Of a DNA stretch of 51,894 bases, positions 368 to 51,894 are shown piece after piece. The translations under genes and the position numbers were made by a program. Location of the stretch: the sequence record NC_042122.1; one strand, written 5' to 3'. The notes under the pieces are model-generated. The model did no database searches. It was not told where the DNA came from and saw only the letters and a program-made list of their open reading frames with translations. Numbering within the stretch: the first letter of the stretch is position 1; each line of letters begins with the position of its first letter. The DNA comes from Enterobacter phage Ec_L1.

Positions 368-412
368 AATAGCACTTTTTGTTAAACCATTCGTCTTGTT
401 GAGTGTTATTAT
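368..412 (+). promoter_or_regulatory. early promoter cassette P1: AATAGCACTTTTTGTTAAAC, 19-nt spacer, TGtTATTAT
   Basis: 20-bp palindromic element followed by an extended -10; no -35 at 17 bp. Confidence 0.6.
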
Positions 413-8666: not shown

Positions 8667-8710
8667 ATATAACAAAACCCGCCGAAGCGGGTTTGACAAA
8701 AAGTGCTATT
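8667..8710 (-). promoter_or_regulatory. early promoter cassette P13 (minus strand) with embedded terminator hairpin
   Basis: AATAGCACTTTTTGTCAAAC, then CCCGCTTCGGCGGG-TTTT, then TGtTATATT. Confidence 0.55.
8678..8695 (-). terminator. terminator hairpin CCCGCTTCGGCGGG + TTTT (inside P13 spacer)
   Basis: UUCG tetraloop hairpin plus a T-run on the minus strand. Confidence 0.55.
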
Positions 8711-9257: not shown

Positions 9258-10838
9258 TTACCCCAGTAGACGAGGGTTAATGTAAACGTCATCACCAATC
9301 AGGCAGACGTACCCTAATCCCTCAAGCCTTGGTAGCAGGTGATCACGAATGCGCTTCGTAACTCCAGACTGACCAAAGAAAGGCTTGATCTTTCGCACAC
9401 CCTCATAGATTGAGCGGAACTTGATCACGCCTTTCGCGTTCTTCCCTCGCTTAACGATGAAGTCAACCAATACCCTCATTTCAGCGTCATCACCAGCATG
9501 ACCAGCCGAGTTAGCGGATGAAAGATAGGTCTTGCTCAGTTCATAGAACATCGCAACCGCCTCCTGCATGGTGTCAAGATCGATCGTCTTTGACTTCTGA
9601 GGATTAGAGTTATCGCTTGACCAGTTCCGGATCACGTGAATTACGGATGCGATTCGAATTGCCTGCTTGTCAAACTTACCCATAGCCCCGCGCAACATCG
9701 TGTGAGAATACTTCCCGCCGTCAGCCAAGTGCGGCTCCATCTCCTGGCGCGCTCGGTTCAGGTACTTCATTGCAGCAGTTCCAACTTTCAGCTTGATATC
9801 TGTCTCGCTCATGATCTCGTGAATCAGCTTGTAGTATTTCGCGACAAGCTCACTGTCGATAGGGGTGTATGTGCTGTTACCCTTCTCGTCAACAAACTTA
9901 CGGCGACCGAGATATGATTCTTCTCGAACCAGCAAGAAACGCTCTGAAACACCGATACCGCGTGAACCAGCCGCCATAATGCCCTCAATCGTCTCGTCCT
10001 GAGCAATGACCGCAATGGCACCCATGGCAACAAAACTCATGTTGTTGTCAGCGTTTGCACGAGCGATAGATACGTGCCCGCTATCCCAGGCCTTAAGGAC
10101 AAGCTCACTGTTCGTTTTCCGGCTCGCGTCCTGGTATGTCATACCAAGAAGGGAGTTAATACTCGTCGCCTCATCGGATATTACCGAGAAGTTGCCTTGA
10201 CGGTTGTTGATTCGCGCCAATCCTTCTGGCGTGGTATCGGATACGGGAAAAACGATGTCGCACATCTTTTCTAACTTCTCCTCCAGATCTTCCAACTCCT
10301 CATAAAGCGAGGCGAGATCGGACTTTGATTTCTCTCCCTTAAGTTCAGTTTTGCAGGCTGAGATCTTAGCCATTAAACGCTTGCGCTCCTTCTTGCGCTG
10401 CTCGTTAATGCGATCAACTTCTGCAATCATTGGTTTGATTGCCATTGAGTTAATGGCTGATTTCCCTGTCGACGGCGGCTGACTGGTCACGACATAAAGT
10501 GATGTTGGCTGGTCTGTTCCGTGATAGTCAACGGTGAATCTCCCCAGCATTGCAGCAGACACGCACGCCAGGAAGTGCATGTATGCGGATGACTCCGGAA
10601 ACTGAACAGAACGCGCCGCGTTAGCAGATAGCTTTCCGACGATGTCCAGATCGTTACCGAGGGAGATTACCGGATATTTATCATTGCCGCCGTCAACGTC
10701 CTTAACTTCCGTCCAGAATGACGAAGAGTGACGATAACCATTAGCCTTGATTGCCACGCGAAGAGGTGAGATCCCCTCATTCTCTGCGATAACAATAATC
10801 TGCTGCGGCGTCATGGTTTGTTGCATGTTGTCAAACAT
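9258..10838 (-). CDS. replicative helicase-like protein, DUF3987 / P4-alpha C-terminal (SF3-like) family
   Basis: Walker A QPPSTGKS and Walker B VISDEAT, separated by a charged coiled-coil insert. 526 aa. RBS aaggagcaaag. Confidence 0.6.
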   Translation of the reverse strand: MFDNMQQTMTPQQIIVIAENEGISPLRVAIKANGYRHSSSFWTEVKDVDGGNDKYPVISLGNDLDIVGKLSANAARSVQFPESSAYMHFLACVSAAMLGRFTVDYHGTDQPTSLYVVTSQPPSTGKSAINSMAIKPMIAEVDRINEQRKKERKRLMAKISACKTELKGEKSKSDLASLYEELEDLEEKLEKMCDIVFPVSDTTPEGLARINNRQGNFSVISDEATSINSLLGMTYQDASRKTNSELVLKAWDSGHVSIARANADNNMSFVAMGAIAVIAQDETIEGIMAAGSRGIGVSERFLLVREESYLGRRKFVDEKGNSTYTPIDSELVAKYYKLIHEIMSETDIKLKVGTAAMKYLNRARQEMEPHLADGGKYSHTMLRGAMGKFDKQAIRIASVIHVIRNWSSDNSNPQKSKTIDLDTMQEAVAMFYELSKTYLSSANSAGHAGDDAEMRVLVDFIVKRGKNAKGVIKFRSIYEGVRKIKPFFGQSGVTKRIRDHLLPRLEGLGYVCLIGDDVYINPRLLG

Positions 10839-11368: not shown

Positions 11369-11412
11369 ATGTAACAAAACCCGCCGAAGCGGGTTTAACA
11401 AAAAGTGCTATT
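11369..11412 (-). promoter_or_regulatory. early promoter cassette P14 (minus strand) with embedded terminator hairpin
   Basis: Roughly 60-bp near-repeat of the P13 module. Confidence 0.55.
11380..11397 (-). terminator. terminator hairpin CCCGCTTCGGCGGG + TTTT (inside P14 spacer)
   Basis: Identical to the hairpin at 8678. Confidence 0.55.
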
Positions 11413-15698: not shown

Positions 15699-15744
15699 GA
15701 TTATGCACCATTCGAGCCTGATTGGTTTAGCAAAAAGTGCTATT
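15699..15744 (-). promoter_or_regulatory. early promoter cassette P18 (minus strand; leftward promoter of divergent control region)
   Basis: AATAGCACTTTTTGCTAAAC, 19 nt, TGcATAATC. Confidence 0.55.
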
Positions 15745-15929
15745 TCTCGCAGAGTGTCAAAATGACTATATTGTTGCTGTATTGTTCATGATCTCATAAC
15801 ACTGTTGCTCATATAGCAATAGTGATTGTTGCTGTGATTGCAAAAGTCGACTCTCATTATTGCCTGATATGCATTAAGTTGAGAGGGGTAGAGATGGTGT
15901 TTCGCTGTTCGCCTGGTGCTCGTGGAAAT

Positions 15930-16465
15930 TTCTGTGGAGGATTTGGGGAAAGTTACGGAGGATTTTTCGGACTCAATGCAGCGAACCATTCAGAGATAAC
16001 GCTCATCGTTTCCCCTCCCTGGTGTGCGTGATGTGCTGCGGAGGGTTGCGGAGGATTACGGAGGATTTGCAATTCGGCTCTAGCCCTTGGTGCGTCTGGT
16101 CTGCGAGAGATTTACGCCGGATAATGTCGATTTTTGTGCTGGGGCTGGTATATGTATACATAGAGAAATGATGTGAAAGTGATGTGCTCATACACGTAGA
16201 GAAAAAATGCAATAGTCCAATAATCCGCATAATCCTCCGTAAACTATGAAGAGAGAGACATATACCAATAGAGTAATATAGTAATAATATATATAAAAAC
16301 CCTTATATTACATATATATATAGTATTATTATATACTATTGTATATGAGTTGCTTGGTCATAAAATGAGCTGATTTTACGGAGGATGGTTCCGGCGCAAT
16401 CCTCCGCGATTTAACTAAGTACATGATTTACAAGGCCGCATTTACGGAGGATTTTTTCCGCAAAA
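15930..16465. repeat. iteron cluster A: about 9 copies of (A/G)CGGAGG(A/G)TT in both orientations, flanking a roughly 90-bp AT-rich core (16258-16350); candidate replication origin
   Basis: Tandem block gcggagggttgcggaggattacggaggatt at 16038-16067. Inverted pair at 16381-16412. AT-rich tract with polypurine/polypyrimidine runs. No credible coding capacity. Confidence 0.6.
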
Positions 16466-16483: not shown

Positions 16484-16528
16484 AATAGCACTTTTTGCTA
16501 AAACAGCACCCCTGGCTTTTGGTATTAT
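16484..16528 (+). promoter_or_regulatory. early promoter cassette P4 (AATAGCACTTTTTGCTAAAAC + TGgTATTAT)
   Basis: Rightward promoter of the divergent control region. Confidence 0.6.
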
Positions 16529-17499: not shown

Positions 17500-17687
17500 T
17501 TAGCGCTGAGGCCTGGGTGTTCCGAGCGGGGTTCTATGCAAAAATCGGATTTGATTTCTACATCTGGCACCCAATCAAGAAGATTTGGATCAGAATCTAC
17601 TGGCTTTGTGGCAACACTTACGAAAGGGCGCGTTGCAATCGCAAGTTAATGAAGGTCAAGATCCTGCTAGAAAAGATCCGACTATAG
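17496..17687 (+). CDS. hypothetical protein
   Basis: ATGA overlap with the upstream gene; the stop TAG is the TAG of the next promoter motif. Confidence 0.4.
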   Translation: MISAEAWVFRAGFYAKIGFDFYIWHPIKKIWIRIYWLCGNTYERARCNRKLMKVKILLEKIRL

Positions 17688-17727
17688 CACTTTTTGCTAA
17701 ACGCCGCCCGACGCAATCGGGCATAAT
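17683..17727 (+). promoter_or_regulatory. early promoter cassette P7 (TTTTT-centre variant)
   Basis: Element, hairpin GCCCGA-cgcaa-TCGGGC, then CATAAT. Confidence 0.6.
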
Positions 17728-17757
17728 GCAGTTACACCAAACAAACGGAGCAATACC

Positions 17758-18051
17758 ATGAAAAAGAAAACCAACCTCGTTCGCGTTCGTCTACTCACTG
17801 ACGGATATTTCCGTGACAGCGACAATCTGAAAGTATGGCTCAAGCCTCGCACCTTCCCTGTTATCGTCAACGCTGAGATTGTGAAGTCTGAAAGCGGGTT
17901 GCCAGTTTTCGCAAAAGTGCCAATGTCCGAATGCGTTGCTATCGGCATGAATCCGGCAATCTTTGGTAACGGCCTGGAAGGGTGCGGATTGTCCTGGGCG
18001 CTGCATGAGGTTGATGACCTGTGCGGCAACCCTGAAGCTGAGATCCTGTAA
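17758..18051 (+). CDS. hypothetical protein
   Basis: 97 aa; RBS ggagcaatacc. Confidence 0.5.
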   Translation: MKKKTNLVRVRLLTDGYFRDSDNLKVWLKPRTFPVIVNAEIVKSESGLPVFAKVPMSECVAIGMNPAIFGNGLEGCGLSWALHEVDDLCGNPEAEIL

Positions 18052-24015: not shown

Positions 24016-24377
24016 TTACTACGATCCTGTTGTGCATTATCTTCTTTGTTTGCGGCGGCGGCTTAACCTTCCTCGCCGTTGCTGCTGGAATCCATGAGTG
24101 TGCTAAAGATGGTGTGTTAGCGGCAGCGTTCTACTCAGAAAAGCGTGGTCGCTGGGAGGTGCTCGGTAGCTACCTGACGGTAGCAGGAAAGATCAGCAAA
24201 ATCCTACGATCTAACGAGGCAGTAGAAAAGCTGCATTACGTAGAGCTTGAACCCACACCAAAGAAAAGCAAAGAGTCATTAAGCAAGCGTTTCAAAGTGA
24301 AGTTGGGCATCAAGCGATCCGGTAAAGGCTGGCGACTTGGCAAGAACAAGTCGGGCAACTTCAAGCAAAGTGAATAA
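24012..24377 (+). CDS. hypothetical membrane protein (N-terminal TM)
   Basis: N-terminal ILLCIIFFVCGGGLTFLAVAAGI; basic C-terminus. Confidence 0.45.
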   Translation: MITTILLCIIFFVCGGGLTFLAVAAGIHECAKDGVLAAAFYSEKRGRWEVLGSYLTVAGKISKILRSNEAVEKLHYVELEPTPKKSKESLSKRFKVKLGIKRSGKGWRLGKNKSGNFKQSE

Positions 24378-24384
24378 AAACTAA

Positions 24385-24405
24385 CCCGCTTCGGCGGGTT
24401 TTTTT
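24385..24405 (+). terminator. intrinsic terminator CCCGCTTCGGCGGG + T7 ending the accessory array
   Basis: The same hairpin again, now on the plus strand with a strong T-run. Confidence 0.7.
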
Positions 24406-24416
24406 TCGTCTGCAAT

Positions 24417-27883: not shown

Positions 27884-28619
27884 CTGGCGCTTTCCTGAAT
27901 CAAGCGAGCGGCAATTAAGCCGCTCCTTACAGGAGGCAACAAAAGAATCCATGATCCTGATGCGTGAACGACTCGACTCATTGAAGTTTGACGCGGAAGA
28001 GTCGGAGATCGCACAGGCTGAGGAGGATTTAGAGGCGGAGATTCTTGCCATATTCCTTAGCGTAGCTTTCGGGCTTTACGCCATAGGCCGGACGATTTAC
28101 CGATTCAACTCCCAGCAATGGCTTGCAATTGCGATCGCATCTGGCGGGAAGGACAACGCCGCCGTGATGACTCTCGAAAGGTTCGGGGCGAATGAGCAAG
28201 AGCCTTGGTTTAAGCAAAAAATTGACCTGTGGGAAGGTACGGCAAGGAATAGCATAACCAAGCTGGCGAAAGACATCGTCGCTGACTGGTCAACAAACGT
28301 CAGAGTTGAGGCGATGAAAGGCGCAAGCCGGAAAGAAGTAGACGCCACAATCGAAAAGCGTTACGCAATATATGGAAGCTGGTCAAAGAATCGCGCTAGT
28401 GGTATTATTGGCACGTTCAACTCCATGCTCATGAAGCAACGACTTTATGACGCTGGGGTTGCATTCTATATCTGGCGCGGCAAGATGGACGATCGCGAAA
28501 GGGAATCTCATATTCTCCTGGAGGGTGTAAAGCGCTCCGTGTTTGGTGAGGGGATATTCCCTGGCGAGGAGTACGGTTGTCGTTGCTGGGCTGTTCCATA
28601 TTGGGGAGATAAAAAATGA
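27867..28619 (+). CDS. head morphogenesis protein (Mu gpF / SPP1 gp7-like)
   Basis: 250 aa. Mu_F-like C-terminal segment YIWRGKMDDRERESHILLEGV. Located right after the portal. Confidence 0.55.
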   Translation: MRIIPNWRFPESSERQLSRSLQEATKESMILMRERLDSLKFDAEESEIAQAEEDLEAEILAIFLSVAFGLYAIGRTIYRFNSQQWLAIAIASGGKDNAAVMTLERFGANEQEPWFKQKIDLWEGTARNSITKLAKDIVADWSTNVRVEAMKGASRKEVDATIEKRYAIYGSWSKNRASGIIGTFNSMLMKQRLYDAGVAFYIWRGKMDDRERESHILLEGVKRSVFGEGIFPGEEYGCRCWAVPYWGDKK

Positions 28620-29755
28620 AGAAGCAACGCTATGATAGCGTAAAGGTAAAGGCGCGATTCGATGAAAACGGCTTTCTTGTCGACACTCCAATCGTTGCCC
28701 GCATCGGTGCGCAGACTTACTATAAAGCCGACGGAACGCCGCGAGTAGAGTTCCGACCTGCATCCGAAGTGTTCAAAGCTGAATCGCTGGCTACCTATCA
28801 GGGCAAGCCGATTACTCTCGGTCACGTCACCGTTAGTAGCAAAAATGCCAAGGGTGTTGTCGTGGGATCTTGTTCTGGTGCTGGCGTACCTGCCGGAAAC
28901 GGGGTTGAGGTTCCGGTAACGGTTTACGATGGTGAGGCAATCGCCAAGGCCAAGAAGAAGATCGCAGCCGAATTGTCTGTAGGCTATACCTCGGTGGATA
29001 TTGAGGAACCTGGTTGGGGTTGTAACGAGACTGGCGAATACATCCTTGATAAGGACAAGAATGATTCAGATCACATTCCGGCGTCGTGGGTTCGCTTTGA
29101 TGCGTTGCAGACTGAGATCACAGTTAACCATGTGGCTATGGTTTTCCGTGGTCGCGCTGGTATCGCTAAATTAAACCTTGATAGTGAGCAGGAGTTCCCG
29201 TATGATGAGCTTGTTCCTAACAAAACTGATGAGGATTTGGAAATGAAAAAAATCAAGATTGACGGTGTTGAGTATGAGGTTCCGGTTCAGGTAGCTGCTG
29301 CTCTTGAAAAGGCTGACGCTGCTGTTTCTGGCATCTCCGTAAAAGTCGACGCGGCTGTCGACGCTGCTGTTGCTGTAATCACGGCGGAGCGAGATCAGCT
29401 TAAAGCAAAGGTTGACTCAATCCCAAGCATGATTGAAGAAGCGCTGGAAAAGGCCAAGACCGATGAGGCCGCGCTTGTTGCGCTGGTAGCTACAGCGGCA
29501 GACTTCGGCGTTAAAGCTGACGGGATGGACGCCAAAGCGATCAAGCTGGCGGTAATCAAAGAGGCATCCGGCATCGACGCTAGCGACAAAGATGACGCGT
29601 ATATCGACGCATCGTTTGATTTTGCCGTTAAGTCTGATAAAATGGCACTACAGCGAATCGCTGTAAACGGAAAAGAAAATTCCGACAAGAACGACAAAAA
29701 CGACAAAGACGACGCTGACGAGATCCCTAACCCTCAGAATCGTTTCCGTAAGTAA
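28616..29755 (+). CDS. putative scaffolding / prohead protease-like protein with Ala/Asp-rich coiled C-terminus
   Basis: 379 aa. C-terminal low-complexity AAVDAAVAV...DKNDKNDKDDADE. Position before the capsid genes. Confidence 0.45.
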   Translation: MKKQRYDSVKVKARFDENGFLVDTPIVARIGAQTYYKADGTPRVEFRPASEVFKAESLATYQGKPITLGHVTVSSKNAKGVVVGSCSGAGVPAGNGVEVPVTVYDGEAIAKAKKKIAAELSVGYTSVDIEEPGWGCNETGEYILDKDKNDSDHIPASWVRFDALQTEITVNHVAMVFRGRAGIAKLNLDSEQEFPYDELVPNKTDEDLEMKKIKIDGVEYEVPVQVAAALEKADAAVSGISVKVDAAVDAAVAVITAERDQLKAKVDSIPSMIEEALEKAKTDEAALVALVATAADFGVKADGMDAKAIKLAVIKEASGIDASDKDDAYIDASFDFAVKSDKMALQRIAVNGKENSDKNDKNDKDDADEIPNPQNRFRK

Positions 29756-49200: not shown

Positions 49201-50247
49201 TTAGTTATCTTGAGTGAATAACTCCTTAAACTGATACTTGACAAATTCAGGAGTTGGCAGAACAACCTCATCGGCGTTGTTTTCATAGCTAGGCCAAACG
49301 TCATGCTTCACACATTCAGAGAAAACATGAATCACGCTTGTGTACTGCTGTCGACCAATGGCTAACTGCTCATTTGTCATGGTGAACCCAAGCGGAAGAT
49401 ATGGGACTTTCTTTTCCTGAGCAAGGAATCGTATAACGATCGGTCGAGTCTCCTCAAATGCAGCCTTGAACAGATCTCTCTGTAGAGCCATCTTTAAGTA
49501 ATAGCCCAGGTTAAACGCGTGACGCGCAAAATCAGACGGCTTCACACTCTGAGTGGTCTTGTAATCAGTTATTACAACAATCTCAGGGTTAATATCAGGA
49601 TCGTAGCCATATTTTTTGATTAACTCCGGATCGGTTATTGTGTCTACGTGGTCAAGTCGAACCTTAACCTTAACCCCGAAAATGATCCCAAAGATTGATA
49701 TCTCACGCAATGCCGTATGGCTGTTTATCGTTGCGGCATGGCGAGGTATGTTAAGCAGCGTTTGGCGCATGTACTTGCAGGCGTCGTAATCCTCAGCCTT
49801 TACAAGCTCCTTACCTTCATGCTTTGCATTCCACTCAGCCAACATCTCTTCAAGCCACAACACATTGACCTCAATGTCGTTCTTTGCCGCCATAACCAGC
49901 AATTCAGGATAACCCTTTCCACTTGTACCAATCAGGCCGCATGCTTTCAGCTTGGAAGCGAGAGCGGATTGGCTTGTGATGCAGTCTTTGATCTCGCCAG
50001 CCATAACACCGCGAGCGTAAAGGCTATCGAACTTCTCAACCTCCAGCATCATGGTATGCGACTGTGTTCCGAATGCAAGAGCCTTACTCAATTCTCTGAT
50101 CCTGAATTTCCAGTCTGCCGGACATGTGGCATGAATATCAGCGAGAGAAGAACCTGAGACGTATTCTGAAACCCAACCCTCTGAGGCGTGGTATTCGTCG
50201 TTTGTCATTTCCTCGTTGAGGAAGTATTGAAAGCGAGGCTGTTCCAT
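49201..50247 (-). CDS. RecE/RecB-family PD-(D/E)xK exonuclease
   Basis: VVITDYKTT motif. Start refined to the ATG at 50247 with RBS aaaaggagtcatac. The listed start at 50295 lies upstream of the promoter -10. Confidence 0.7.
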   Translation of the reverse strand: MEQPRFQYFLNEEMTNDEYHASEGWVSEYVSGSSLADIHATCPADWKFRIRELSKALAFGTQSHTMMLEVEKFDSLYARGVMAGEIKDCITSQSALASKLKACGLIGTSGKGYPELLVMAAKNDIEVNVLWLEEMLAEWNAKHEGKELVKAEDYDACKYMRQTLLNIPRHAATINSHTALREISIFGIIFGVKVKVRLDHVDTITDPELIKKYGYDPDINPEIVVITDYKTTQSVKPSDFARHAFNLGYYLKMALQRDLFKAAFEETRPIVIRFLAQEKKVPYLPLGFTMTNEQLAIGRQQYTSVIHVFSECVKHDVWPSYENNADEVVLPTPEFVKYQFKELFTQDN

Positions 50248-50278
50248 GTATGACTCCTTTTGTGTGCGTGTGCGATGC

Positions 50279-50320
50279 AGTATACCCGATCTCATTCGTT
50301 GCGTTTAGCAAAAAGTGCTC
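50279..50320 (-). promoter_or_regulatory. early promoter cassette P19 (minus strand; exo-SSAP-ssb operon)
   Basis: GAGCACTTTTTGCTAAAC, 18 nt, TATACT, RBS aaaaggag. Confidence 0.55.
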
Positions 50321-50327
50321 ATTTTTA

Positions 50328-50795
50328 CTCAACGGAGGATTGCGGAAATTTACGGAGGATTCAAAAACAGCCTCCAGGCCTTGGTGTTACTGGCCTAAAC
50401 GACAATCTACGCCGGAAAATGTCGATTTTTGCGCTCTATAGATACCAAATTCACCAAAAACAGGCATGAAAAAAGATCCGACAACACAATAATCAACATA
50501 ATCCTCCGTAAATAAATAATACATACTACACATATAATAATAATATCTATATATATTAGATACTTATGTATGTCTAAAGGTTGAAAATAGCTCATTATTT
50601 GAGCGATTTTTGCGGAGGATTGATCCGGCGTAAATTCCGCAAATTCTGTAAGTGACTGATTTTGTTGAATGCAATTGCGGAGGATTTTTCGTTAAATCTC
50701 CCTTAAATCCGGCTTGTTTAAGTTTGTTAAATCTTTTTGTGGAGGATTGCGGAGGATTGCGGAGGGTTTACGGAGGGTTTACGGAGGATTTTTCC
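50328..50795. repeat. iteron cluster B: about 10 copies of the same GGAGGATT iteron (five tandem at 50739-50790, 10-11 bp period) plus AT-rich core (50500-50575); paralog of cluster A
   Basis: Shares non-iteron blocks with A: TACGCCGGA(T/A)AATGTCGATTTTTG(T/C)GC and ATAATCCTCCGTAAA. Confidence 0.6.
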
Positions 50796-50796
50796 G

Positions 50797-50825
50797 GCGT
50801 AAAAAAACCCGCCGAAGCGGGTTAG
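50797..50825 (-). terminator. terminator CCCGCTTCGGCGGG + T7 after primase gene (minus strand)
   Basis: Fourth copy of the same hairpin. Confidence 0.65.
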
Positions 50826-51760
50826 TTTTTGCGGTTGATTAAGACAAGTGGATCGTAAAGCGCTCGCTTGCAACCCGACTTGAATCCTGACTGGTCACTG
50901 TTTGGAATGATAACCTTTAACTCTCGGTCATCTGCCATATAAAGCGTATCTAAGTCATTAGACGGGCAAGCAACCCTCAACTCTCGCTCTCCTGTATACC
51001 TGTAAGCAACGATCTCAAGGTTGCTCGGTTCGATACAAGCCCAGCACTCCTGGCCTGTTGCATTATGAACCCTAACGGCGTCATACCACGAGTTGACCAG
51101 ATAGATCGCCTTATCAGTGCTGCCGACCTTTATCACCGCGCCTCGAGTGTAATCCTTGGCGTAGAACCGATCATTTCCGAGTTCATCTATGATCAGTAGG
51201 TTGCAAAACTCGTCGTCGAGTTCTTCACCCTGAACAAGCTGCATCGGGAGTACGTGAAAAACGCTCTCATCTCCATTCTCAAGGGTTTTCACACCCACAT
51301 CGAATGATTCACCTATAAGACCTTCAAAAATCGTTAGCGGAGTTTGTGCTCGCTTTTCGGTGCGGTCTAATATCGCCTGGCACTTGTCATGCTCCGCCGT
51401 AGCCCCGAATGAATAGCCTGGGTCTTTTGCAGCCCTCTTGTTCTGTTTGATAACGTACTCTTGCGGAACCTTTCCGAGGAATCGACCAAGAATGTTAATG
51501 CACTCGCTGTAAGGCTCTCCGGATAACTTCATCAACCAACCGATCCCCTTATCAGCGCCGCAATTATTGCAGTACGCCCAACCATCACCAACCTTGTTAT
51601 CTTTTTTATTCGTCCAACGAAATCTATCCTTACCTCCGCAGTGAGGGCAATCCTGGTGCTTGCCGTTGAAGTATTTCGAATTCAGGCCGCAAATGCTTTG
51701 CAATGCGTCCTGCCACATGTTGGACATGTACGGGATCACGTCCTCCTCTTGATACATCAT
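50822..51760 (-). CDS. DNA primase (zinc-finger CxxC...CxxC N-terminal domain, P4-alpha/primase-like)
   Basis: DCPHCGGKDRFRW...CNNCG zinc finger. The listed start at 51799 lies inside the promoter -10. Real start is probably ATG 51760, 51757 or 51727; start uncertain. Confidence 0.55.
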   Translation of the reverse strand: MMYQEEDVIPYMSNMWQDALQSICGLNSKYFNGKHQDCPHCGGKDRFRWTNKKDNKVGDGWAYCNNCGADKGIGWLMKLSGEPYSECINILGRFLGKVPQEYVIKQNKRAAKDPGYSFGATAEHDKCQAILDRTEKRAQTPLTIFEGLIGESFDVGVKTLENGDESVFHVLPMQLVQGEELDDEFCNLLIIDELGNDRFYAKDYTRGAVIKVGSTDKAIYLVNSWYDAVRVHNATGQECWACIEPSNLEIVAYRYTGERELRVACPSNDLDTLYMADDRELKVIIPNSDQSGFKSGCKRALYDPLVLINRKN

Positions 51761-51797
51761 CACTTTTATATTCTCCAAAATAGAAACGGGCGCGATC

Positions 51798-51843
51798 ATA
51801 ATAACCGCGCCCGCTTGGGATTGCTTAGCTTTTTGTGCTTATT
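51798..51843 (-). promoter_or_regulatory. degenerate early promoter cassette P20 (minus strand; primase)
   Basis: AATAAGCACAAAAAGCTAAGC, about 19 nt, TTATTAT, enclosed in hairpin GGGCGCG/CGCGCCC. Confidence 0.4.
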
Positions 51844-51894
51844 TCACCACTCTCAACATCTCACGCCGATCGCATCGTGTGGTAAGAGCCTTTC

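Follow-up and report, generated by a model that had tools for sequence, protein, structure and literature searches.

Two paralogous iteron-flanked AT-rich elements as candidate replication-origin modules in Enterobacter phage Ec_L1 and other T1-like phages

Enterobacter phage Ec_L1 (NC_042122.1), a T1-like siphovirus of the Drexlerviridae, carries two intergenic elements, region A (15936-16456) and region B (50325-50800), in which short repeats (iterons) lie on both sides of an AT-rich core. The stretch of DNA analyzed, called the window here, is the complete circularly permuted genome of 51,894 bp, and Enterobacter phage Phc (genus Eclunavirus), with ~84-85% nucleotide identity, is the closest to it in the phage collection. 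Region B is located between the primase gene (50822-51799, minus strand) and the gene of a RecE-like exonuclease (exo), after which come the Erf and SSB genes. A and B are probably two copies of an iteron-plus-DNA-unwinding-element (DUE) replication-origin module recognized by one phage protein, a reading that rests on sequence anatomy, on the paralogy of the two regions and on their conservation as a pair throughout the family.

The repeat GGAGGATT is present in 16 copies in the window against 1.67 expected (the maximum of 100 shuffles was 4), of which seven are in A (15936-16453), eight in B (50334-50790) and one outside both, at 28022. When GGAGG[AG]T is allowed, B contains ten copies (50334, 50354, 50501 on the minus strand, 50614, 50679, 50741, 50751, 50761, 50772 and 50783), in addition to a degenerate one (CGGAAATT at 50343), in agreement with the initial annotation of this DNA, which had counted about ten. 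The iteron is 11-12 bp long, and its consensus in B is TT(A/G)CGGAGG(A/G)TT; the form found in the window can be written TTRCGGAGGRTT and the form found in the array TTACGGAGGATT. On the left side, a plus-strand group at 50334-50361 consists of CGGAGGATT (50333-50341), CGGAAATT (50343-50350) and CGGAGGATT (50353-50361) with 10-bp spacing; the group, 15-40 bp away from the exo promoter element, is identical in Phc and in the metagenomic IMG/VR contig L021. It is followed by the non-iteron block TACGCCGGAAAATGTCGATTTTTGCGC (50408-50434, plus strand), which is common to A (16113-16139), is nearly invariant in the four copies represented by A and B of the window and Phc, and holds TACGCCGGA, the reverse of the TCCGGCGTA motif that is found again in the elements of phages TLS and Vc1. 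The left edge of the core is marked by an inverted iteron, ATAATCCTCCGTAAA (50498-50512, minus strand), also common to A (16229-16243), so that the reversed copy that had been annotated is indeed present (50500-50507).

The AT-rich core itself, a candidate DUE, extends over 50509-50588, with TATA and AAT/ATT runs and 16% GC as the 80-bp window of minimum GC content, and, at -79.0 kcal/mol compared to a mean of -111.9 (standard deviation (sd) 5.2), it ranks second genome-wide among the least stable 80-bp duplexes. The right side comprises GGAGGATT (50614-50621) and TCCGGCGTAA (50625-50634) as an imperfect inverted pair (50614-50634, plus strand), a single plus-strand iteron (50679-50686) and a plus-strand tandem array at 50741-50804, whose five iterons start at 50741, 50751, 50761, 50772 and 50783 and are followed by TCCGGCGTAA at 50795-50804. 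The spacing within the array (10, 10, 11 and 11 bp) corresponds to the helical repeat and bears out the 10-11-bp period noted initially; Phc and L021 have four units, the difference being one clean 11-bp unit. B therefore has plus-strand iterons on either side of the core, a minus-strand copy at its left edge and inverted TCCGGCGTAA half-sites, and it combines what is generally expected of an iteron-plus-DUE origin, namely clustered repeats above chance at helical spacing and an adjacent, extremely unstable AT segment. TCCGGCGTAA sites (core TTACGCC) are found at 50408-50416, 50625-50634, 50795-50804, 16113-16121 and 16390-16399, and TCCGGCGTAA adjoins the AT core in several genera (TLS, L017; Vc1, L019; T1, L014; IME253, L018) despite the change of iteron; the motif may be an inverted iteron that has degenerated, or else a conserved second factor may act there.

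Region A shows the same organization on the plus strand, with iterons at 15936, 15957, 16040, 16050, 16060, 16232 (minus strand), 16380, 16399 (minus strand) and 16446, so that minus-strand copies are located on both sides of its core; this core (16266-16345) ranks lowest in stability among all 80-bp duplexes of the genome (-74.5 kcal/mol). The two regions are colinear (16039-16456 with 50333-50689), with 62.4% identity over 420 columns (E 3.9e-24 in a comparison of B with the whole window), and A is the top non-self match of B in the genome. Two blocks shared in the same order had been annotated, and both exist: TACGCCGGA(T/A)AATGTCGATTTTTG(T/C)GC at 16113-16139 and 50408-50434, and ATAATCCTCCGTAAA at 16229-16243 and 50498-50512, the coordinates originally given for A being one base off. 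The evidence supports the earlier view of A and B as diverged duplicates with an iteron-plus-AT-rich anatomy of the origin type. They do not reflect an assembly or terminal-redundancy artefact, since both are found at orthologous positions in Phc and B is also found in the metagenomic L021.

The pair is conserved across the family. The relatives fetched (T1, JMPW1, Klebsiella phage 1513, TLS, IME253 and Vibrio phage Vc1) make up, with the window and Phc, eight genomes of six genera, and in 8/8 of them the two least stable 80-bp windows genome-wide are one core upstream of exo and one core in a second gap. These cores range from -72 to -80 kcal/mol compared to genome means of -108 to -115 (sd 5-6), which is 5.5-7 sd below the mean, and the third-ranked 80-bp window lies at -87 to -96 kcal/mol. 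In seven genomes the second core is located in the divergent early gap, and there the top non-self match of B is A (E 1e-6 to 1e-34). Vc1 instead has its second copy just past ssb, between convergent genes, and its divergent early gap is without one; the copy number is still two, and the location between convergent genes indicates that no promoter context is needed. The two Vc1 elements (L019, 20574-20695 and 23444-23550) lie on either side of the exo-erf-ssb module, inverted relative to each other, and in TLS (L017) the gaps that hold the elements are 49708-588 and 28707-29117. A survey of IMG/VR, in which exo-centered and helicase-centered loci were paired by contig, gave 34 informative contigs, not independent of each other since many are Webervirus and some duplicate GenBank phages, and both cores were present in 33/34 of them. 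The neighborhoods of the two cores were similar to each other (E 7e-6 to 9e-71), whereas a control segment gave E 0.001 or weaker in all but two genomes. The B core was located 125-351 bp upstream of the exo start across these contigs (262 bp in the window), and the single exception had no A-type core within the ~5.1 kb of upstream sequence covered, where the element may lie outside that stretch. Co-occurrence in relatives, the comparison that had been proposed at the outset, is thus found across the family. The contact between region B and the primase gene, also annotated initially, is real in this genome and is not a conserved linkage: the B-type element of T1, JMPW1, TLS, IME253 and Vc1 is found upstream of exo-erf-ssb, apart from the primase. 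The recombination module is inverted or relocated between genera, always with the B-type element upstream, which suggests that it was rearranged through recombination between the two copies.

The repeats themselves differ by lineage. The window, Phc and L021 carry CGGAGGATT; Webervirus carries the recognizably diverged GGTAAGATT (3 copies in A, 5 in B and 0-2 elsewhere in the genome); one IMG/VR lineage carries TTGGGACAAA (7-9 copies per element) and another CCCCTCCC; GTGTAACA is a further lineage repeat common to A and B of one genome; T1 and Rtpvirus share GTGTAAC(A)/TTACGC, and TLS and Vc1 share GTGAACA/GGAACA. Sequence turnover is complete between genera and the anatomy is unchanged. The iterons evolve in concert between A and B of a genome, and since the repeats differ by lineage yet are common to both elements within each genome, one cognate binder per genome is indicated. 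Between close relatives the iterons are constrained. Between the window and Phc, 79/81 iteron positions are identical in A and 79/81 in B (the clean 11-bp deleted unit set aside), compared to 78% (A) and 86% (B) of the other gap positions; the pooled values are 158/162 for iterons and 712/876 for the other positions (odds ratio 9.1, p 4.5e-9). Every B iteron is kept in L021, with its four-unit array, and the conservation of the gaps between the window and Phc equals that of coding sequence. The two elements are constrained non-coding DNA. The TLS repeats (GTGAACA/TGGAACA/GTTCAC) share a core with TGTTCACC, which we take to be the type I iteron (octamer) of satellite phage P4. The 2024 reannotation of TLS reported no iterons anywhere in its genome (PMC11447400); contrary to it, TLS does have repeats, though short ones.

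Neither DnaA boxes nor IHF consensus sites were found in the region, and GATC is depleted and not clustered; the lack of DnaA boxes and IHF sites points to a phage-encoded initiator. An origin module fits these observations better than a pure operator array, a pac site or a gene, because the iterons flank an unwinding-prone core on both sides, the elements number two per genome and evolve in concert, sites for host initiators are lacking and a helicase of a self-loading type is encoded. According to the proposed mechanism, one phage protein would bind the iterons at A and B and melt the AT core, the replicative helicase would be loaded at the melted core and the zinc-ribbon primase would then prime synthesis. 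The roles of the two copies are more tentative. One possibility is that B itself fires as another origin; having its own AT core and being a complete paralog of A, it looks more like an origin of this kind than like an enhancer made up of repeats only. A less likely one is that B acts as an accessory site, which would handcuff or loop to A (such contact between A and B is possible) or, alternatively, would stall forks through bound initiator, with the adjacent exo-erf-ssb genes switching replication to concatemers, as proposed for oriR of phage SPP1. The fork-stalling variant is attractive because B is constantly associated with exo-erf-ssb, although the observations would fit a true second origin just as well. 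A more specific and rather speculative version is a two-site system with an MCM-like self-loading helicase, in which A, beside pac and the early operons, would fire, and B would be a programmed initiator-bound barrier or handcuffing partner that couples origin activity to RecE/Erf/SSB and makes theta replication give way to recombination-dependent concatemers. The conserved count of two, even where the second copy has moved (Vc1), would then reflect a division of labor between A and B.

The most likely candidate for an iteron-binding initiator-helicase is a 526-aa protein (9258-10838, minus strand) assigned by Pfam to DUF3987 (SF6, MCM-like), with a C-terminal winged helix at about aa 450-522. 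Its AlphaFold (AF2) model (pLDDT 88.9, pTM 0.86) shows a C-terminus with the H-b-H-H-b-b order of a winged helix, and the top PDB matches of the model are MCM2-7 subunits (>500 columns, E 3.6e-6), whereas a PDB sequence search with the primase and the helicase returned nothing significant. DUF3987 proteins have been described as SF6, MCM-related, predicted replicative helicases with a winged helix-turn-helix at the C-terminus (PMC4889955), and one member is a biochemically proven helicase that binds its primase (PMC11724360). In the SaPI Rep helicases (SF3 or SF6), which are self-loading, a C-terminal winged helix reads iterons that flank an AT-rich ori (PMC9371898), and the DUF3987 helicase may bind through its winged helix and load itself in the same way. 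The alternative candidate is a Cro-like helix-turn-helix (HTH) regulator of 136 aa, whose minus-strand gene is split by the window junction (51839-51894, 3' part, and 1-355, 5' part) and lies between the primase and SF2 helicase genes; besides its HTH, the protein has an N-terminus that is basic and highly conserved (DKRxxNGNNG..R..DKK) and a C-terminal part with Cys. The candidates were compared through domain-wise divergence over 8 genomes and pairwise covariation over 24-30 genomes. Iteron sharing was correlated with protein identity (24 genomes, with non-independent pairs) with Spearman values of 0.83-0.84 for the helicase core and winged helix and 0.54-0.70 for the regulator; when near-identical pairs were removed, the values were 0.70-0.72 for the helicase and 0.17-0.45 for the regulator, and partial correlations controlling for the helicase core were 0.44 for the winged helix and 0.38 for the HTH. 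These sequence comparisons modestly favor the helicase, rather than the Cro-like regulator, as putative reader of the iterons. Protein scans covered 26 window proteins, a subset of the open reading frames (ORFs), against Pfam, PHROGs or NCBIfam; no gp38-type origin binder, helicase loader or DnaB-family helicase was detected among these 26, and no classical initiator among the early proteins scanned.

Several points weigh against this interpretation. The correlation between helicase and iterons could be linkage, because the helicase gene is ~3-5 kb from A; the HTH of the Cro-like protein also varies by lineage; and small early proteins are possible alternative binders. The element does not adjoin the helicase gene, unlike in SaPI: the helicase is 5.4 kb from A and >10 kb from B in the window (3.2-5.6 kb in relatives). 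The repeats are short and few in some lineages (T1 and TLS), and GC skew follows the direction of transcription and locates no origin. A nucleotide search with region B gave no match among plasmids and no characterized replicon with the same sequence. Moreover, both elements adjoin promoters in the window, regulatory regions typically contain repeats in AT-rich DNA too, and several cores have a TATAAT-like hexamer inside them.

The last points lead to the competing explanation that survives best, although it is unlikely: A and B would be transcription-control regions, whose repeats would be operators for a phage regulator (e.g., the Cro-like HTH protein) that times the divergent early operons at A and exo-erf-ssb at B, with the core as a promoter/UP-element cluster or as bendable DNA. 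The TATAAT-like hexamers would agree with this, as would the promoter-associated 21-nt repeat that borders both gaps, the short distance between the left B iterons and the exo promoter element, the stereotyped distance of the B core from exo across the family, and the predicted recognition helix of the Cro-like protein, which is the same within a lineage and changes between lineages whose repeats differ. However, a consensus promoter scan of B found 2 sites against 1.6 expected, nothing above background; the five-unit array lies ~450 bp from the exo promoter, just beyond a terminator; one Vc1 copy is found between convergent genes; and promoters do not require an 80-bp core of such low stability, twice per genome in every genome compared. 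Additionally, the promoter region of the regulator itself is without iterons, and the identity of the regulator predicts iteron sharing less well than that of the helicase.

It is improbable that the elements are packaging or recombination sites, that is, a pac-type terminase region, or hotspots or substrates of RecE/Erf or of an inversion system. The T1 and TLS records begin inside the A-type gap, and the TLS pac was mapped experimentally nearby; B-type elements always accompany the recombination operon, which in Vc1 is flanked by inverted copies and is inverted between genera. On the other hand, packaging in T1-like phages starts at one pac site (PMC11447400), whereas the elements number two; B is distant from the terminase genes; no site-specific recombinase was detected among the proteins scanned; and inversion of the module is explained more simply as a side effect of homologous recombination between the copies. 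The part of gap A that resembles the physical end of T1 (15745-15935) is also not common to B. This left part, ~60% identical to Phc, contains short TTGC/GCAA-rich repeats and 'GAGAGGGG...GTTCGCCTGGT', like the first ~100 bp of the T1 record, whose start is the physical left end and the beginning of a 2.8-kb terminal repeat. From this resemblance it is probably the pac/terminus region, and the pac function suggested by the starts of the T1 and TLS records would belong there.

A gene within the region, either for a small protein or for a non-coding RNA (e.g., a small RNA ending at the hairpin 50590-50604 or at the terminator 50806-50823), is very improbable. Three ORFs of 62-69 aa are present in the gap, there are terminator-like hairpins, and the single-strand folding of 50576-50700 is slightly better than that of shuffles (z -2.3 and -2.2), a modest excess attributable to the inverted iterons. 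However, all three ORFs are broken in Phc and the substitutions have no codon-position bias, an Rfam scan of the region gave no match, and the covariation term of RNAalifold was negligible in an alignment of the four copies (A and B of the window and Phc); the complete sequence turnover between genera with unchanged anatomy also argues against a gene or an RNA. Least probable of all is a neutral or selfish duplication without present function, for which it might be said that Phc and L021 are the only close relatives, and against which stand strongly the maintenance of two copies in six genera and in nearly all informative contigs despite repeat turnover, the excess constraint on iteron positions and the conservation of the gap at the level of coding sequence.

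The nucleotide search with region B among phages matched only Phc beyond a shared terminator hairpin. A scan for the tandem iteron gave 10 matches in IMG/VR and 105 in 596 Gb of genomes (~69 expected by chance), and none of the 80 listed genome matches was enterobacterial, so the tandem iteron occurs elsewhere in public DNA roughly at the rate of chance. The same iteron core, ACGGAGGGTT, is clustered as a tandem pair with direct and inverted copies in four unrelated low-GC and high-GC phage contigs of IMG/VR (L004, 1243-1347; L006, 10-310; L008, 838-1110; L010, 3604-3910). The L004 and L010 clusters come directly after a D5_N/Pox_D5 primase-helicase gene, and L010 also carries ATGCCGATTTCTGCGC, compared to ATGTCGATTTTTGCGC in the window. 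The four loci have no homology with the window proteins (blastp and hhalign), and the clusters are regarded as coincidence by ascertainment.

Judged by anatomy, the closest analogs of the two-site module appear to be oriL/oriR of SPP1 and the SaPI ori. SPP1 has two sites ~13 kb apart on the circular map, oriL and oriR, each with direct repeats together with an unwinding element that is AT-rich, and gp38 binds the two of them; forks are proposed to stall at oriR, so that concatemer synthesis takes over through the phage's exonuclease, annealing protein and SSB (PMC6316719). Both phages are pac-type headful siphoviruses of ~44-52 kb with two distant sites of the same organization (17.4 kb apart in Ec_L1), and both encode a 5'-3' exonuclease, a single-strand annealing protein and an SSB. 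SPP1 differs in that it uses gp38, a loader and a DnaB-type helicase and has oriL inside gene 38, whereas Ec_L1 has an MCM-like helicase and two intergenic sites; moreover, SPP1 has no sequence similarity to A or B. The SaPI ori likewise has short iterons in both orientations on either side of an AT-rich center, its initiator Rep doubles as the replicative helicase, and the SaPIbov1-type Rep is SF6 like DUF3987 and has a separate primase partner (PMC9371898), although iteron reading by the winged helix is only predicted for the phage protein. Unlike A and B, the SaPI ori is single-copy and located immediately downstream of rep, compared to two elements 5.4 kb and >10 kb from the helicase here.

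Satellite phage P4 has two iteron-bearing sites, ori and crr, with the replication protein alpha as the presumed binder of both and crr as a repeat-only cis enhancer. The initial annotation had taken this pair as the model and had described a P4-alpha-like helicase. There are indeed two iteron sites per genome, and the primase zinc ribbon PF08273 is common with the P4-alpha/T7 gp4 type. However, the helicases are an SF2 RadD-like and a DUF3987/SF6 MCM-like protein, with no D5_N/Pox_D5 SF3 helicase domain in either of them or in the primase; the P4 octamer TGTTCACC has three scattered, unclustered copies in the window; and B, unlike crr, is a full paralog with its own AT core, which leaves P4 ori/crr as a looser analogy. 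In lambda and in theta plasmids (pSC101, R6K, RK2 and P1), iteron arrays at helical spacing are located beside an AT-rich element, and extra arrays can handcuff. Ec_L1, a lytic phage, differs from these in that neither DnaA boxes nor IHF sites accompany the elements, no Rep/O-type initiator was detected and the iterons lie on both sides of the core.

With respect to the surrounding genes, the alignment to Phc runs uninterrupted over 51894 -> 1, and the window junction falls inside a gene. The primase carries the zinc ribbon and belongs to the PHROG 'DNA primase'. The SF2 RadD-like helicase (693 aa, 403-2484) adjoins the regulator gene. exo (49201-50247, minus strand) is the first gene of the exo-erf-ssb operon; its true start is probably 50247, which gives 348 aa and an AAGGAG ribosome-binding site. 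The right boundary of B is a bidirectional intrinsic terminator (50806-50823) at the end of the primase gene; its hairpin, AAACCCGCCGAAGCGGGTT, is reused at the operon ends 24376-24415 (minus strand), 11371-11395 and 8670-8693 and is the sole part of region B with matches in dozens of other Drexlerviridae. The left boundary is a T1-family 21-nt promoter-associated repeat upstream of exo (AGCACTTTTTGCTAAA, 50304-50319, minus strand), with a putative -10 hexamer TATACT at 50279-50284 (minus strand), assigned by reading the sequence. The repeat is of the type described for TLS as the 21-nt 'DR' (PMC11447400). Its form AGCACnnnTTGnTAAA has 26 matches (<=2 mismatches) across the window compared to 4.7 expected; the exact and near-exact copies checked lie upstream of genes and are oriented with transcription (e.g., 371-386, plus strand), and candidate roles are a promoter, an UP element or a 'stoperator'. 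The GGAGGATT iterons differ in sequence from this repeat and do not belong to it, and its copies merely border B (50304-50319, minus strand) and A (15726-15741, minus strand, and 16487-16502, plus strand). Since the two repeats at its edges point outwards, region A lies between divergent early operons. Additionally, the exo promoter and 5' untranslated region (50242-50319) are 74% identical to the reverse complement of 17686-17763, upstream of the ORF 17758-18051, and this similarity suggests a promoter cassette shared by the two genes.

Among the seven classic T phages is T1, whose abundant relatives are used in therapy and have a bad reputation as laboratory contaminants. No replication origin has been defined for the T1 family, although the older T1 and Rtp genome literature may mention these AT-rich regions in passing, and the 2020 study of phage SU57 also failed to find one (PMC7718038). 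The paired elements are the first concrete, testable origin candidates for the family, with two precise, conserved and readily mutable sites per genome and candidate binders. If the interpretation is correct, they would provide an example from a bacterial virus of an MCM-like initiator-helicase acting at iteron origins and a Gram-negative counterpart of the two-origin model of SPP1. It would also supply lineage-specific origin/initiator pairs for phage engineering, with bearing on incompatibility or interference between co-infecting T1-like phages.

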